Positions 5,133-19,688 of a stretch of DNA of 20,000 nucleotides are shown here, in pieces. Source of the DNA: Candidatus Atabeyarchaeum deiterrae (GTDB lineage: Archaea; Asgardarchaeota; Atabeyarchaeia; Atabeyarchaeales; Atabeyarchaeaceae). Position 1 is the stretch's first letter. Every line of letters begins with the position of its first letter. The DNA lies in contig CP147780.1 of the NCBI GenBank assembly GCA_037310415.1, positions 773,066-793,065 of the forward strand, in the 5' to 3' direction. A model generated the notes under the pieces. The model worked only from the letters and a program-made list of their open reading frames with translations, was not told the DNA's origin and ran no database searches. The translations under genes and the position numbers were made by a program.

Positions 5133-6272
5133 CTACCCTACTCCCACCGTGTTTCCTATGCCAGCTATGAGTACCGTAGATCCAAGTTCTGTTCGATCCC
5201 TGATAATCTGTTTGACTCTTTCAACAACTTTGTCTGCTGCGTCAGCGATTTCCTTTTTCATCGGCATCACTGCTTCCTCAATGGCTTCCTTCACAAGTAT
5301 CGCGTCCAATGGGATGTCGTACTTTACAGCAGACTCTTCAATCTTATACTTCTCAGGACCTGGGTCGCCAATTGCGGCACCGACGCCTTCAACTACGTCG
5401 CCAGTAGTCTCCCCCTCAAGTTTGCCAGCAGCGTCAATCATTATAATCCTTGAGATGTGCCCCTTATGATCCTCGACTATCCTCTCAATAGCCTCTCCAG
5501 GTTTACCAACTCGGCTGCCTGGTCCCTTGGCCCTGACAAGGAGAACTTTTCTCTTCTCAAGCTGAATCTCTGCAACCGTAACTTCCTTGGCCACGTCTTC
5601 CGTTATGATTGGGCTTTCTCCATTTTTCTTATATTCATCCGCCAGGCGAGCTATGACAAGCGGTCCCAGTCCATCACCTATCGGTTTGCCCAGTGAGAAC
5701 GCTTTCAATGCTTCAAGATAAGCTTTGGCGATTTGCATGATTTGCGCTAGCTGCATTTGTATTTGCAGAGAAATATACATGTTCTTCGTCTTTTTCCCCA
5801 GTAGGTAGTAGTGCCTGACTACTTTGAAGATGAAGTACACGGCACCTGCCGCTTCGAGTGTTCCCTCAAGATTTGAAGCCTCATCCTTGCTGGCGTTTGG
5901 AGCCATTCTTGTGACAGCATCTTCCCACCTTGACTTCCTGACATCTAAGACGTGATCCAGCCTCTGAATCACGCCAGCCGGATCAATATTGACTGGTTCT
6001 ATGGTCACAAATTCTAGCATCGATTCCACAGATTTAGTAGGATCTTCGCTCGTTTTGCCGAGGTCCTTTATCGCCTTAGTAGTTATCTCTTTTCCTTCAT
6101 CTGACATCCGGTTCAATCGGATCATAGCGGCCTCTATCTGTTTGTTCCACCTCCAAACCTGAAGAGATTGCGCATAGAACACACTGATGAATATCATGAC
6201 AAACCACAGTATCTGAATAATCAGATTGAAGTCCACGCCAAATATGGTGAACTGCAAAGGCAAACTAGTCAT
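5133..6272 (-). CDS. DUF1512-like conserved archaeal membrane-anchored protein (start reassigned to MTSLPLQFTIFG)
   Basis: Long ORF 5133..6404; internal Met at 6272 begins a hydrophobic N-terminus, and a TATA-like box (ctttttataaac, about 6346-6357) lies upstream of it. The sequence resembles the archaeal DUF1512 family from memory. Confidence 0.72.
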   Translation of the reverse strand: MTSLPLQFTIFGVDFNLIIQILWFVMIFISVFYAQSLQVWRWNKQIEAAMIRLNRMSDEGKEITTKAIKDLGKTSEDPTKSVESMLEFVTIEPVNIDPAGVIQRLDHVLDVRKSRWEDAVTRMAPNASKDEASNLEGTLEAAGAVYFIFKVVRHYYLLGKKTKNMYISLQIQMQLAQIMQIAKAYLEALKAFSLGKPIGDGLGPLVIARLADEYKKNGESPIITEDVAKEVTVAEIQLEKRKVLLVRAKGPGSRVGKPGEAIERIVEDHKGHISRIIMIDAAGKLEGETTGDVVEGVGAAIGDPGPEKYKIEESAVKYDIPLDAILVKEAIEEAVMPMKKEIADAADKVVERVKQIIRDRTELGSTVLIAGIGNTVGVG

Positions 6273-6482
6273 TCCAAAGTCATCTCCTGCTGGTCTCTCG
6301 AAGTCTTCGCGACTTTCAGACAATAACGGGTAATGAACCAGCTTTTTATAAACTTGTGTATTTAGGCAAACGATGAATAAAGAGAAATCGAGCGGGACTC
6401 CCAAAAGGATTTTAGGGAGTTGAGAGAATATCCGTTATGACAGTTTAATCATGGCTCCGCATCGGGGCTTTTGAGTTTTAGT

Positions 6483-6659
6483 GTGGCAACAATCCGTGGT
6501 CGGAACGGGAACGGGTGTTACACCCCGCCTATGACCGGCGGCGAACCGCCAGCCGTCCAAGCTTCCCGAAGGGTCTCCCACTTCAGTACAACAAGGATCG
6601 CGCGAGGGCTTAACTCTCACGGCCCAGGTAGGTACCTGATGGCTTTCACGTGTTGCCAC
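6483..6659 (-). rRNA. 5S ribosomal RNA, circularly permuted gene order (3' portion, UUCG linker, 5' portion)
   Basis: Minus strand: GTGGCAACA-[leader hairpin]-GAGAGTTAAGCCCTCGCG...TTGTACTGAAGTGGGAGACCCTTCGGGAAG...GGACGGCTGGCGG-TTCG-CCGCCGGTCATAGGCGGGGTGTAACACCCGTTCCCGTTCCGACCACGGAT-TGTTGCCAC. All 5S landmarks are present but in permuted order; helix I (6554-6546 / 6541-6533) is closed by UUCG. Confidence 0.9.
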
Positions 6660-6691
6660 CAAATCTGTGTCTATTACCAGAAGATAGATTT

Positions 6692-6700
6692 CTTATAAAC
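6692..6700 (-). promoter_or_regulatory. TATA-like box for the permuted 5S rRNA gene
   Basis: Minus strand GCTAAGTTTATAAGAAATC; centred about 26 nt upstream of an expected start near 6670, just before the terminal helix. Confidence 0.6.
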
Positions 6701-7075: not shown

Positions 7076-7176
7076 TGGTGGGCGAGAGGGGATTTGAACC
7101 CCTGACCACGTGGTCCCGAGCCACGTATCATACCAGTCTAGGGTCTTCCTTAACTCCCTATCTAGACTACCCGCCC
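7076..7176 (-). tRNA. tRNA-Pro(CGG) with D-loop intron; CCA encoded
   Basis: Acceptor GGGCGGG/CTCGCCC, anticodon arm CGTGG-CTCGGGA-CCACG, T arm AGGGG-TTCAAAT-CCCCT, ACCA end; about 24 extra nt in the D loop between repeated TAGA sequences. Confidence 0.88.
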
Positions 7177-7334: not shown

Positions 7335-8054
7335 ATGGAGTCGTCGCTTGACAAGGGAAGGCTGGGAAGACTTGCTCGCAGGATAGCAGGAGAAATATCA
7401 CTCTCAGATGATCCTGGGAAAACAATGCGCAAGTGGAGAGAGATATTCCATGTGAATCAAGCTGACTTATCCCAATGTCTCAAGATCTCTCCCTCCGTAA
7501 TAAGTGACTATGAGAGTGGTCGAAGAAAGTCTCCAGGAACTAGGGCGATCAAAAGGTTCGTTGAGGCGTTGCTCCACATCGATGAAAAGAGTGGCGGCGG
7601 AGTCAAAGCCGCATTTGAGCGATTGCTCAGCGTTGAGGTTCCGACCGACATAATTCTGGACATTAAGGAATTCAATTTACCTGTTAGAGCTCAAAAAGTC
7701 TGCGATGCATTGCAGGCGAATGTTGCGGCTCGCGAAGACTTACTCGACAGAGAATTACTAGGATATACAGTTGTCGATGGCTTGGGAGCGCTGAACGAGC
7801 TTTCTGGAGAGGCTTTTGCAAAGCTGTTTGCGACAATGGATCAAAGAGCACTTATTTTTACTCAGATTAGTACTGGCAGATCTCCTTTGGTGGCAGTTAA
7901 GGTTGGGGAAGTCAAGCCGAGTCTCGTGGTTCTACACGGTCGAGGAGAGGTGGAATACCTTGCGGTGGAGATGGCTCAACGCGAAGGAATTCCACTATTG
8001 GTCTCTCAGATAGAGTCGGTAAGTGAACTAATAAGACGGCTTCGCGAGCTTTGA
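7335..8054 (+). CDS. XRE-like helix-turn-helix transcriptional regulator with C-terminal archaeal domain
   Basis: MRKWREIFHVNQADLSQCLKISPSVISDYESGRRKSPGTRAIKRFVEAL is a clear HTH_3-type motif. Confidence 0.88.
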   Translation: MESSLDKGRLGRLARRIAGEISLSDDPGKTMRKWREIFHVNQADLSQCLKISPSVISDYESGRRKSPGTRAIKRFVEALLHIDEKSGGGVKAAFERLLSVEVPTDIILDIKEFNLPVRAQKVCDALQANVAAREDLLDRELLGYTVVDGLGALNELSGEAFAKLFATMDQRALIFTQISTGRSPLVAVKVGEVKPSLVVLHGRGEVEYLAVEMAQREGIPLLVSQIESVSELIRRLREL

Positions 8055-8314
8055 TTCGTCTTCATCTCATATCCATTTATGCCATAGAAATTTGCAAATA
8101 GTCGAATCAGAGCGAGTGTTACAATGAAAAAGTTTAAGAATTGCAGATGCTCCCTTCGTAAACAAAACCTCACATCGTTCATCTATCCATTTCTATCATG
8201 GTCGCTTTATGACATCGTTTTCTGATTTCGTGGATATCTGGTGCAACACGGTGTCTCCTCGGTTTGAGATGTAGGTGCGCATGTGGAATTGTTTCGAATT
8301 AGAGGGATCTATCA

Positions 8315-9385
8315 ATGGTAATGAAGCCAGTAAATCCGGTGGGTTTTGTAGGATGGGGTGGATATGTCCCGCGGTACAGGATTTCGGTCGAAGAGATTGC
8401 CAGAATCTGGGGGAAGGACCCAAGAAGATACAAAGGAGGTCTCCTCGTAGAGGAAAAAGCGGTTGGAGGGCCTGATGAGGATTCGGCAACAATAGCGATC
8501 GAAGCTGCTAGAAACGCTCTACTGAGGTGCGACATCAACGTCGGGAGTATCGGTGCGGTTTTCGTTGGCTCCGAATCAAAACCCTACGCCGTAAAGCCTT
8601 CTGGCACCGTTGTGGCTGAAGCGATAGGCGCCACTCCTATGGTTCTTGCGGCCGATTTTGAGTTTGCGTGCAAGGCTGGAACCGAGGCTATCCAATGTGG
8701 AATGGGACTAGTTGGCTCTGGTATGATTAAGTATGCGCTAGGAATCGGATCAGATGTATCTCAAGGTGCACCCGGAGATGATCTGGAATTTACTGCTGCT
8801 GCTGGCGGCGCTGCCTACGTAATAGGCAGAGCGGGGGAGGAAACAATCGCAGATGTTGAGTGTTCATGTTCATTCGTGACTGATACGCCTGATTTCTGGA
8901 GAAGGCAGGGCCAGCCATACCCAAGACATGGCGAGTCTTTCACAGGACAGCCCGCTTATTTTAGGCATGTGACTTCAGCGGCTAAAACGCTCATGGATGA
9001 ACTTGGCGTTAAGGCGAATGACTACAATTATGCCGTATTTCATCAGCCGAATGGTAAGTTCCCAGTAAGAGCTGCAAACAGCCTTGGTTTTACTATGGAC
9101 AAGATCAAGCCTGGGCTTCTCGTTACTCGAATTGGTAATACTTATTCTGGTTCTTCTCCGTTGGGCCTTGCTGCGACACTTGACATTGCCAAGCCGGGAG
9201 ATAGGATACTTGTTGTGTCCTACGGCTCGGGTGCTGGTAGCGATGCGTTTTCAATAGTGGTGAAGGATGGAATTGAAGAAAAAAAGAAACTGGCTCCATC
9301 GATAAAGGACTACATCGAGAGGAAGTCCAACATAGACTATTCGACTTACATGAAATGGTATAAGATGATTTTGACGCTAACGTAG
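8315..9385 (+). CDS. hydroxymethylglutaryl-CoA synthase, archaeal type
   Basis: [70 protein letters not shown]. Confidence 0.95.
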
Positions 9386-19557: not shown

Positions 19558-19688
19558 GCCGAGGTAGCTCAGCTTGGTTAGAGCGCCGGATCGCGTTAAA
19601 TAAACAAGACGAAACTCATAATCGGCTGAAATCTGGGGTCAGATGAGAAATCCGGAGATCGCGCGTTCAAATCTCGCCCTCGGCACCA
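19558..19688 (+). tRNA. elongator tRNA-Met(CAT) with two introns flanking the anticodon loop; CCA encoded
   Basis: Acceptor GCCGAGG/CCTCGGC, D arm GCTC-AGCTTGGTTA-GAGC, CCGGA (19586-19590), CTCATAA (19615-19621), TCCGG (19651-19655), T loop TTCAAAT, ACCA end. Removing 24 and 29 nt gives 78 nt. Confidence 0.78.

Follow-up and report, generated by a model that had tools for sequence, protein, structure and literature searches.

A circularly permuted 5S rRNA gene flanked by a bulge-helix-bulge motif on an Asgard archaeal chromosome

Results

A permuted 5S rRNA gene in Candidatus Atabeyarchaeum deiterrae

The DNA analysed here, referred to as the window, is a stretch of 20,000 nt from Candidatus Atabeyarchaeum deiterrae (GCA_037310415.1, contig CP147780.1, positions 773,066 to 793,065 of the forward strand). 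On its minus strand lies a circularly permuted 5S rRNA gene, the parts of which are collected in Table 1. An initial reading of the letters alone (the sequence-only reading) had placed the two 5S parts in swapped order, with coordinates and sequences that proved exact. Folding bore out its description of helix I as an unbroken hairpin stem of 9 bp, two of them G-U, and the re-joined length is indeed 119 nt, from a 70-nt 3' part and a 49-nt 5' part, giving 123 nt in all with the UUCG loop. In the re-joined 119-mer the helix II/III arm, the IV/V arm and helix I form (MFE -51.4 kcal/mol), and joining the parts after the predicted cuts restores the canonical helix III/loop B sequence (CGGAAGUUAAG). 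Helices I-V, the three-way junction of a 5S and the motifs of loop C and loop B/E are all present in the re-joined molecule.

Both parts lie within one transcription unit, the 3' part upstream, and a conserved TATA box precedes them. The promoter block GTTTATAAGAA is unchanged in an alignment of four loci (A1) and is present in L007, L020 and L022 too, while the Baldrarchaeum version of the TATA block reads GTTTATATGG. The usual archaeal TATA-to-start spacing would put the start of transcription at about 6670.

Table 1. Features of the permuted 5S locus, in the order of the minus strand. A slash marks a predicted cut.
Feature	Position	Strand	Evidence
Archaeal promoter: TATA box TTTATAA (6699..6693) within the invariant block	6690..6700	-	
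Leader strand of outer BHB helix, GUGGCAACA, pairing with 6491..6483	6651..6659	-	Perfect 9-bp complement, in MFE fold
CGUG copy 1, possible 5' strand of 4-bp central BHB helix; AA/A next	6647..6650	-	Sequence
Insert, 29 nt, AGCCAUCAGGUACCUACCUGGGCCGUGAG, intron-like	6616..6644	-	Absent from relatives; motif in joined context
Insert hairpin	6643..6622	-	
CGUG copy 2, after the hairpin and before AG	6621..6618	-	
Predicted 5' cut	between 6616 and 6615	-	
3' part of 5S rRNA: rest of helix III/loop B, helix II 3' strand, helices IV and V, loops E and D, helix I 3' strand	6546..6615	-	RF00001 partial match, R1 match, structure and covariation
UUCG loop capping helix I, at the site of the free termini of a normal 5S	6542..6545	-	Folds
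5' part of 5S rRNA: helix I 5' strand, loop A, helix II 5' strand, helix III, loop C	6493..6541	-	RF00001 partial match, R1 match, BHB table
CACG, 3' strand of central BHB helix, also within the 5S 5' part	6498..6495	-	
Predicted 3' cut	between 6493 and 6492	-	
Trailer: U6492 (third, predicted discarded nucleotide of the 3' bulge GA/U), then UGUUGCCAC	6483..6492	-	
UGUUGCCAC, trailer strand of outer BHB helix	6491..6483	-	Helix covariation

Covariance-model searches

No 5S reaches the RF00001 gathering score (38 bits) anywhere in the 20-kb window, and no Rfam family matched the permuted locus at its gathering score. At a permissive threshold RF00001 gives two pieces, the split matches in swapped order that had been predicted: one at 6663..6544 (21.7 bits), in which the well-aligned stretch is the 3' part (about model positions 50 to 120), and one at 6518..6488 (16.5 bits, model positions 25-54). 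Likewise none of 14 permuted Asgard loci that were scanned (11 plus L023, L024 and L028) reaches gathering, and all five control loci (L011, L013, L025, L026 and L027) do; the low scores at permuted loci are due to the order of the gene, not to the RNA.

As a reciprocal test, a covariance model built from the re-joined Asgard sequences only (R1) was run against canonical 5S. Its best match is the canonical Haloterrigena 5S, spanned end to end at 81.5 bits (E 3.6e-16), which agrees with the expectation that the re-permuted sequence is a full-length 5S; bacterial 5S is matched at 45-47 bits. On the Asgard loci themselves R1 yields two adjacent half-matches in swapped order, which in the window fall at 6662..6546 (53.6 bits) and 6541..6437 (27.5 bits). 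Apart from the canonical-order, DUF1512-adjacent 5S of Thorarchaeia and Ranarchaeia described below, the Asgard sequences examined hold no canonical 5S copy. A published search of closed Heimdallarchaeum genomes found no 5S, and standard tools probably overlook the 5S genes of many Asgard lineages because this layout recurs in them. A C/D-box match downstream of the locus was weak (16.1 bits, E 1.7) and was treated as chance.

A bulge-helix-bulge motif brackets the gene

The outer limits drawn by the sequence-only reading, 6483 and 6659, turn out to be the exact ends of a leader/trailer helix, about which that reading says nothing. Pairing between the flanks 6659..6651 and 6491..6483 makes up, together with CGUG/CACG, a bulge-helix-bulge (BHB) splicing motif; in the MFE fold of a minimal leader/trailer construct it is CGUG copy 1 that pairs with CACG. 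The geometry is cleanest in relatives that lack the insert, whose flanks read GUGGCAACA-CGUG-AG/A-GUU ... GAC-CACG-GA/N-UGUUGCCAC, the canonical staggered arrangement of two 3-nt bulges on opposite strands, 4 bp apart. In the window the motif is relaxed or nested: with either CGUG copy, one of the two bulges is drawn into a three-way junction by the insert. The bulge nucleotide at the U6492 position is U, A or G among relatives, which fits a nucleotide that is discarded.

The outer helix occurs in several versions, each with its complement: GUGGCAACA, GGUGCAACGCCG, GAUAUUG, GAUCCUG, AGUCCAG and AAUAAUAU. Counted on alignment A4, which holds the first four of these, 8 of its 9 pairs show compensatory change and 95.6% of cells are paired, values equalled by none of 500 shuffles; those of Loki and Hel were taken directly from the sequences. 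MAFFT did not keep the Hod-type BHB, the whole of which is displaced by one nucleotide from the Njord type relative to the 5S body, in register with the latter; only the outer helix was counted formally and the rest was tabulated. A single rule suffices in 16 of 16 loci and in three registers (GGA/AGUU, GGAA/GUU and GGUAA/UUAAG): when the cut is placed 2 nt beyond the 3' end of each central-helix strand, the spacing CGG-NNNN-UAAG is restored.

Some departures from an ideal motif were also seen. The inner helix has only 3 bp (GUU/GAC, one G-U included), the MFE fold of the whole precursor contains the outer helix and lacks the central one, and the Hod/Heimdall motif is a relaxed BHB, since either its 5' bulge has 2 nt or its central helix an A-C mismatch.

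An intron-like insert at the junction

The 29-nt insert, which the sequence-only reading did not note, is absent from L003, L005, L006, L007 and L020, and Atabeyarchaeia-1 (L010) carries a diverged, 30-nt insert at the same site. The hairpin measures 22 nt in the window and 23 nt in Atabeyarchaeia-1, with differences in bulge and loop, and each of the two loci has retained two copies of CGUGA(A/G)A. We considered a repeated element with a target-site duplication and found no support for it: the insert is present at one place in the window and, beyond it, only at that same site in L010. Placed between ...CACGGA and AGUUAAG..., the insert folds into a full hBHBh' motif of -12.4 kcal/mol (the MFE is -14.1), and its removal gives CACGGA/AGUUAAG. 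Motif, absence from orthologues and restored sequence, the marks of an archaeal BHB intron, are all present.

Because the insert creates a three-way junction, processing would call for two rounds or for an endonuclease that tolerates it. The insert might be bypassed by a cut at CGUG copy 2 (route A), or, following an initial ligation, spliced out as a nested BHB intron (route B), and both routes would end in an identical 123-nt product. Nearest-neighbour energies do not separate them, the configuration with copy 1 having -25.3 kcal/mol and that with copy 2 -25.0. It is almost as likely as not that the insert is no intron but an insertion tolerated in the leader and lost with it by a single cut at copy 2, a configuration as stable as the other; one round of processing is simpler and would leave the final product unchanged. 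Such a reading must reckon with the retention of both CGUG copies in the window and Atabeyarchaeia-1 despite divergence of the hairpin between them, the complete intron motif in the joined context, the BHB introns known from Asgard 5S genes (in Ranarchaeia) and the patchy occurrence of the insert among close relatives.

Distribution, covariation and orthology

The sequence-only reading stood or fell with relatives retaining the arrangement, and they do: the BHB-flanked permuted layout was found at 14 further independent loci, 15 with that of the window. They come from Atabeyarchaeia, Njord-like MAGs, Baldrarchaeota, Hodarchaeota, Heimdallarchaeota, Lokiarchaeota and Helarchaeota, at least seven labelled lineages, so that the permuted 5S is spread over most of the Asgard classes sampled. 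A joint alignment of permuted and canonical 5S gives one structure of 34 pairs, 24 of them compensatory, with 95.3% of cells paired; none of 500 shuffles reached these values, and slid controls gave 31-44%. Compensatory changes occur in every 5S helix and in the flanks across the 15 loci, and the permuted arrangement is far beyond chance. For helix I, covariation around a conserved tetraloop had been expected. The covariation is there (L005, for example, has CUGAGCC-UGCG-GGCUCGG), but the loop is not conserved, running from 3 to 5 nt according to lineage (UUCG, UGCG, ACAU, GUU or AAUUA). Nor is the locus misassembled: two Logan assemblies from different runs, retrieved with the HMG-CoA reductase ORF of the window as the query that matched, agree with it with zero mismatches over 17.3 kb and 12.1 kb.

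Two pattern scans were made. The pattern used on the genome collection required GTTAAG, GTACTG and CCGA.C.CGGA, and it missed Loki and Hel because they have UUAAGC or UUAAAC and GGUAAUAUUG or CUUCUGUUG there; its three other matches were tandem canonical 5S pairs (Symbiobacteriaceae, Haloterrigena) and a chance match (Ruminococcus). An arrangement-neutral pattern for the 3' part, applied to metagenomes, returned three contigs, all three permuted, a small sample. In L017 a degenerate partial copy lies about 350 nt upstream of the intact permuted gene.

The position of the gene speaks for its ancestry. Beside DUF1512, Thorarchaeia, Bathyarchaeia and Ranarchaeia carry a canonical-order 5S that Rfam detects, whereas the window, the Njord-like MAGs, Baldrarchaeota, Lokiarchaeota and Helarchaeota carry the permuted gene and Rfam finds none there. 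As the permuted gene shares with the canonical 5S its place upstream of DUF1512, the two are orthologous, and the permuted gene has therefore replaced the canonical one in place. The Ranarchaeia 5S contains a BHB intron. We lean, by a modest measure, towards a scenario in which the 5S of Loki, Hel, Heimdall, Hod, Njord-like, Baldr and Atabey lineages was permuted at its original position, starting from a gene with an intron, and would be rebuilt only by tRNA-splicing endonuclease and ligase, with a nested intron at the junction in the lineage of the window that would call for two splicing rounds.

Discussion

We hold it highly probable that the permuted locus is the functional 5S gene of this organism, transcribed from its own TATA promoter and processed at the BHB into a closed circular 5S. 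The order of the parts, their identity as 5S, the BHB anatomy, the conservation and covariation, and the orthology with canonical 5S are all shown by the sequences, and for cleavage by the endonuclease, ligation and a circular mature RNA we infer the course from the precedent of the Thermoproteus SRP RNA. The precursor would run from leader through 5S 3' part, UUCG and 5S 5' part to trailer, with leader and trailer paired in the 9-bp outer helix. Cuts 2 nt 3' of the central helix on both strands would release a 123-nt piece whose ends, ...CACGGA and AGUUAAG..., should be kept adjacent and would be expected to be joined by the tRNA ligase RtcB. Ligation would restore the universal helix III/loop B and leave a covalently closed 5S rRNA with a tetraloop on helix I.

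The nearest parallel is the permuted SRP RNA gene of Thermoproteus, in which the tRNA splicing endonuclease cuts and ligation then yields a functional circle (PMC4731332). In Thermoproteus tenax, as here, the permuted gene lies on an archaeal chromosome and encodes an essential structured RNA, its canonical counterpart seemed to be missing to standard search tools, its termini fall at a functionally important internal site, and its flanks form a splicing-endonuclease motif, ligation into a circle restoring the product (Plagens et al. 2015, PMC4731332). The Asgard case differs in that the RNA is 5S rRNA, the hosts are Asgard archaea of many classes rather than Thermoproteales, there are three BHB registers, and the window adds a nested intron-like insert. 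Circularity of the T. tenax RNA was demonstrated by RNA-seq and enzyme assays, whereas that of the Asgard 5S is deduced by analogy.

Permuted tRNA genes (Cyanidioschyzon merolae; Thermofilum) are similar again (PMC3978253, PMC3218864): the 3' half precedes the 5' half, a BHB formed between leader and trailer is processed by endonuclease and ligase, and the junction sits at an intron site, which fits an intron-containing ancestor followed by tandem duplication and loss. They also supply an argument for a different end product, since their precursors form a circle that is later linearised (PMC3978253), RNase P and tRNase Z opening it at a linker of greater length. By that example the 5S circle might be only an intermediate, reopened in the helix-I loop so that an ordinary linear 5S enters the ribosome, an outcome we regard as unlikely. 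The Asgard linker is a hairpin loop of just 3-5 nt, it has no conserved sequence across lineages and nothing like a processing signal, and the circle therefore probably persists. In the window, the Njord/Atabey-like sequences, Loki and Hel the loop is moreover a stable tetraloop of UNCG type (UUCG/UGCG). The 5S has no equivalent of the site at which RNase P and tRNase Z remove tRNA linkers, a helix I that in the Hod type has only 7 bp to begin with would be shortened further by opening and trimming, and the SRP RNA precedent remains circular. A closed circle is most likely the working form of the RNA.

The mitochondrial 5S of stramenopiles, that of brown algae included, resembles the Asgard gene in having helix I closed as a hairpin and in escaping the standard model (Valach et al. 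2014, PMC4267664). It is organellar, only its alpha domain is rearranged and its ends lie at the three-way junction; neither a BHB nor ligation is involved, and the product is permuted and linear (PMC4267664). The Asgard break, in helix III/loop B and flanked by a BHB, sets the gene apart from that mtPerm-5S class. Should the algal example apply all the same, the Asgard transcript would be trimmed or cut at the BHB and never ligated, leaving a linear RNA with helix I closed and its ends in helix III/loop B, where a nick beside the helix III AA bulge might be tolerated. This we judge very improbable. A covarying BHB is found in every lineage, in three registers that each restore the exact canonical spacing, as expected from selection for endonuclease cutting and precise joining. 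BHB cleavage leaves a 2',3'-cyclic phosphate and a 5'-OH, the substrates of RtcB, and we know of no description of archaeal BHB products held together in this way that are not ligated.

That the locus is a rearranged pseudogene or an assembly artefact, with the real 5S elsewhere in the genome, is scarcely credible: decayed copies such as that in L017 exist and our 5S scan of this genome covers the 20-kb window, but against this stand the identical sequence in two independent assemblies, the 15 independent loci with compensatory changes in all helices and flanks, the conserved promoter, its occurrence exactly where Thor, Bathy and Ran have the canonical gene, the closed Heimdallarchaeum genomes reported to be without a findable 5S, and the uniformly permuted metagenome contigs.

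Circular rRNA as such has precedents in archaea. The 23S rRNA of Pyrococcus furiosus is cut at a BHB and ligated (PMC7758197), and circular 23S found in ribosomes indicates that circular rRNA can stay there when mature (PMC12918454). The genes of these large rRNAs are colinear, however, and the circle joins natural ends, whereas the Asgard 5S gene is permuted and ligation would rebuild an internal helix; the circular processing described covers 16S and 23S, with 5S rRNAs excluded (PMC12918454). In Sulfolobus and Halobacterium circular 5S-derived RNA has been seen, as we propose for the Asgard 5S, but from canonical genes, with variable junctions and at low abundance, and its authors read it as degradation or minor intermediates (PMC3326292, PMC12558985). 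As far as we have found, no permuted rRNA gene at the level of the chromosome has been described before in any cellular genome. Our literature search turned up no archaeal or other chromosomal permuted 5S, with most subscription journals outside its reach, and absence of an earlier report is unproven.

Among rRNA genes, that of the 5S is held to vary least and to be the easiest to find, and MIMAG 'high-quality' calls require it. A permuted gene offers a simple reason why 5S is reported missing in Asgard genomes, closed ones included, and thereby touches such calls. If the proposal is right, an essential ribosomal component depends on tRNA-splicing endonuclease and ligase, and a probably permanently circular RNA is added to the ribosome. 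At this one locus Thor and Bathy have the canonical gene, Ran an intron-bearing one, the window a permuted gene with a nested insert and other lineages permuted genes in three registers; such a series offers a test of the model in which an intron and then a tandem duplication lead to a permuted gene. Lokiarchaeia are in culture, and the predicted circular 5S is therefore directly testable. The window itself also contains an intron-containing tRNA, and 92-95% of tRNA genes in Atabeyarchaeia bear introns (PMC11291895).

Identity of the permuted 5S rRNA gene

On the minus strand of the window the 5S rRNA gene is written in swapped order, the 3' part running into a UUCG loop and then into the 5' part, just as the sequence-only reading had described it (see table). 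No 5S rRNA reached the Rfam gathering score across the whole 20 kb, and at a permissive threshold we obtained the two partial, order-swapped RF00001 matches which that reading had predicted. Opened in the UUCG loop and joined as GGA|AGUU, the 119-mer does fold as a 5S rRNA, at -51.4 kcal/mol; helix I has 9 bp and is accompanied by a II/III arm and a IV/V arm. Two Logan assemblies, each from a separate sequencing run, match the window without a single mismatch over 17,303 and 12,113 bases, and misassembly is therefore ruled out.

Positions of the permuted gene, its matches and comparison 5S genes (window positions unless a locus is named)
Feature	Location	Strand	Remarks
3' part of 5S	6615..6546	-	AGUUAAGCC...GGCUGGCGG, direct reading
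Loop UUCG	6545..6542	-	Direct reading, between 3' and 5' parts
5' part of 5S	6541..6493	-	CCGCCGGUCAUAGG...CCGACCACGGA, direct reading
RF00001 match 1	6663..6544		21.7 bits; good alignment in 3' portion only
RF00001 match 2	6518..6488		16.5 bits; model positions 25-54
Insert, 29 nt	6644..6616	-	Between outer helix and 5S start; hairpin 6643..6622 plus second CGUGAG
Canonical-order 5S, Thorarchaeota	L025 525-640		R1 and Rfam
Canonical-order 5S, Bathyarchaeota	L027 4819-4935		R1 and Rfam
Intron-bearing colinear 5S, Ranarchaeia MAG GCA_054387495.1	L026 4561-4726	+	R1 and Rfam

We built a covariance model (R1) from twelve re-joined Asgard sequences and no others. Among all sequences scanned it gave its top score to the canonical 5S of Haloterrigena (81.5 bits, E 3.6e-16, model positions 1-119); it also matched the 5S genes of two bacteria (45-47 bits) and returned two neighboring half-matches in swapped order at every permuted locus. 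When the re-joined permuted sequences were aligned with the canonical 5S of Thor, Bathy, Ran (spliced) and Haloterrigena, compensatory changes were seen in 24 of 34 consensus pairs and 95.3% of cells were paired, versus 71% in shuffles (0/500 reached the observed values; slid controls 31-44%). Helix I, which the permutation closes into a hairpin, was 99% paired with four of eight pairs covarying; the expected helix I covariation was thus borne out, while the conserved tetraloop proposed with it was not, the linker varying in sequence between loci. Haloterrigena salina (L013:1562-1816 (-)) and a Symbiobacteriaceae MAG (L011:157-385 (+)) have canonical 5S genes in tandem, which the permuted-order pattern also caught and which serve as positive controls; the second H. 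salina copy scores 54 vs 95 bits and includes an N.

Flanking motif, promoter and predicted cutting rule

The leader GUGGCAACA (6659..6651, -) and the trailer UGUUGCCAC (6491..6483, -) are perfectly complementary and pair in the MFE fold. In relatives the leader reads GUGGCAACA-CGUG-AG|A-GUUAAG and the trailer GAC-CACG-GA|N-UGUUGCCAC, a canonical bulge-helix-bulge (BHB) in which outer, central (4 bp) and short inner helices are set apart by two staggered 3-nt bulges, one on each strand. The third position of the 3' bulge varies freely among loci (U, A or G). Cutting each strand after two bulge nucleotides would discard this third one and leave ends ...CACGGA and AGUUAAG..., the joining of which would rebuild the universal 5S sequence.

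Leader helix strands differ wholly in sequence between lineages (GUGGCAACA, GGUGCAACGCCG, GAUAUUG, GAUCCUG, AGUCCAG and AAUAAUAU) and keep their complementarity. In the alignment used for the formal count (A4), which covers the first four leader types, eight of nine outer-helix pairs were compensatory and 95.6% of cells paired (0/500 shuffles as high; slid controls 26-65%); the Loki and Hel outer helices were read directly. The predicted cut falls after GGA in Njord, Baldr and Atabey, after GGAA in Hod and Heimdall, and after GGUAA in Loki and Hel, and a single rule, a cut 2 nt 3' of each strand of the central helix, gives back the four-nucleotide CGG-UAAG spacing in every case, the inner helix being short and the Hod-type motif relaxed. 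Selection on precise joining explains this common spacing; neither chance nor a dead gene does so.

An invariant GTTTATAAGAA precedes the leader helix by ~33 nt, which indicates that the permuted 5S has its own archaeal promoter. Hod/Heimdall loci L015, L016, L018 and L019 share a stem-loop, GUUUGU-AAUCUC-ACAAAC, ~45-65 nt upstream of the BHB, which may be a promoter-proximal or processing element; its counterpart at L017:3509-3525 has a stem altered on both sides (GGUG...CACC) and a similar loop (AAUCU).

Proposed maturation of the RNA

The 29-nt insert at the junction is missing from five close relatives, and Atabeyarchaeia-1, a relative with a complete chromosome, has a 30-nt version at the same place with a different hairpin. 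Atabeyarchaeia are reported to carry introns in 92-95% of tRNA genes (PMC11291895). With CACGGA on its 5' side and AGUUAAG on its 3' side, the insert folds into a complete hBHBh' motif of the intron type (-12.4 kcal/mol vs MFE -14.1). Either a single cut via CGUG copy 2 would let the hairpin depart with the leader, or CGUG copy 1 would serve for a first cut and ligation, after which the insert would be spliced out as an intron. Predicted stabilities are equal (-25.0 for copy 2, -25.3 kcal/mol for copy 1), with a 123-nt product either way; we lean slightly to the nested intron because both CGUG copies were kept while the hairpin diverged.

BHB cleavage leaves ends that RtcB can join, and the helix-I linker is only 3-5 nt, often a UNCG tetraloop, with no conserved sequence across loci. 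In Thermoproteus the tRNA splicing endonuclease cuts the permuted SRP RNA, which then stays circular and functional (PMC4731332). On these grounds the mature 5S is probably a persistent circle. Later reopening, as in permuted tRNAs, is unlikely, since a short and unconserved linker argues against it. That the ends stay unligated after cutting is highly improbable; the permuted 5S of stramenopile mitochondria, which does without ligation, is a different rearrangement (PMC4267664).

Locus and proposed origin

In Thorarchaeota, Bathyarchaeota and Ranarchaeia a 5S gene, full length by R1 and Rfam, lies directly upstream of DUF1512 on the same strand, which indicates that the permuted gene replaced the canonical one in place. 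Loop C of the Ranarchaeia gene is interrupted by 47-48 nt whose boundaries are BHB-like (UUCCG-AA|A ... CGGG-AA|C) and whose removal restores CCCAUUCCGAACUCGGAAG; BHB introns therefore do enter 5S genes in the Asgard group, and to our knowledge no intron of a 5S rRNA gene has been described. For permuted tRNA genes an origin from an intron-bearing gene by tandem duplication and loss of the outer halves has been proposed, a model which the canonical, intron-bearing and permuted 5S series fits; the intron's own helix would thereby become the leader/trailer helix. An RtcB gene lies in the same Ranarchaeia locus (7824-9269), ~1.7 kb beyond DUF1512.

The linkage is very old: 5S is immediately upstream of DUF1512 in Bathyarchaeota, Thor, Ran, Baldr and Njord/Atabey-like genomes (window 5133-6323 (-) and loci L014, L025, L026 and L027), often with a CTP_transf_like gene, M24 peptidase and PheRS. 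The window's DUF1512 protein is 73-78% identical to MAG proteins, one labelled Candidatus Njordarchaeota, and its HTH protein 81% identical to one on the Atabeyarchaeia-1 chromosome. The organism belongs to the Asgard archaea (kingdom Promethearchaeati), close to these lineages.

Distribution and novelty

The permuted arrangement recurs in relatives, as the sequence-only reading required. By synteny it was found upstream of DUF1512 in three Njord/Atabey-like metagenome contigs and, in a second round, in Lokiarchaeota and two Helarchaeota-like contigs, where it adjoins DUF1512 on the opposite strand. Scanning a genome collection with one permuted-order pattern added a Promethearchaeati MAG, Atabeyarchaeia-1, Baldrarchaeum yapensis, four loci in three Hodarchaeota MAGs, two Heimdallarchaeota MAGs and one further archaeon (lineage names as deposited); the remaining three matches were tandem canonical genes or chance. 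In a metagenome scan using an arrangement-neutral pattern for the 3' part, all three contigs were permuted. Rfam at gathering detected the control 5S genes and none of the permuted loci, and no Rfam 15 family caught the permuted gene in the window or these loci.

Hodarchaeota MAG YT1_021 has two permuted copies (L012:5-123 and L018:3052-3170, on 115-kb and 147-kb contigs), so the gene can be multi-copy. At L017:3165-3275 (+), ~350 nt upstream of an intact gene, a partial copy (R1 27.8 bits) with the leader and most of the 3' part followed by unrelated sequence has the look of a duplicate in decay.

Permuted RNA genes that depend on a BHB are already known, and the mechanism here is of that kind. 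Full-text literature, with most subscription journals outside its coverage, yielded no permuted 5S beyond stramenopile mitochondria; the paper on the Atabeyarchaeia genomes says nothing about 5S (PMC11291895), and a 2026 paper has circularizing processing take in 16S and 23S "but not 5S rRNAs" (PMC12918454). As far as can be told, BHB permutation of an rRNA gene, its spread across Asgard archaea and the nested insert are new.

Other RNA features nearby

ARAGORN called a 101-nt tRNA-Ser (7076-7176 (-)) that shares the strand of the 5S gene, lies upstream of its promoter and is not among the Rfam gathering matches, and a tRNA lies just upstream of the permuted 5S in relatives too, e.g., L003 9074-9188. 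The stretch from the 5S trailer to the start of DUF1512 holds a weak C/D-box snoRNA match (sn3071, 6390-6457 (-), 16.1 bits, E 1.7) that is probably chance. A further tRNA at 19558-19685 (+) (Rfam 50.3 bits; no ARAGORN call) is interrupted around the anticodon region by ~59 nt. These include the CUCAUAA loop sequence, which points to non-canonical or multiple introns such as those reported for Atabeyarchaeia.
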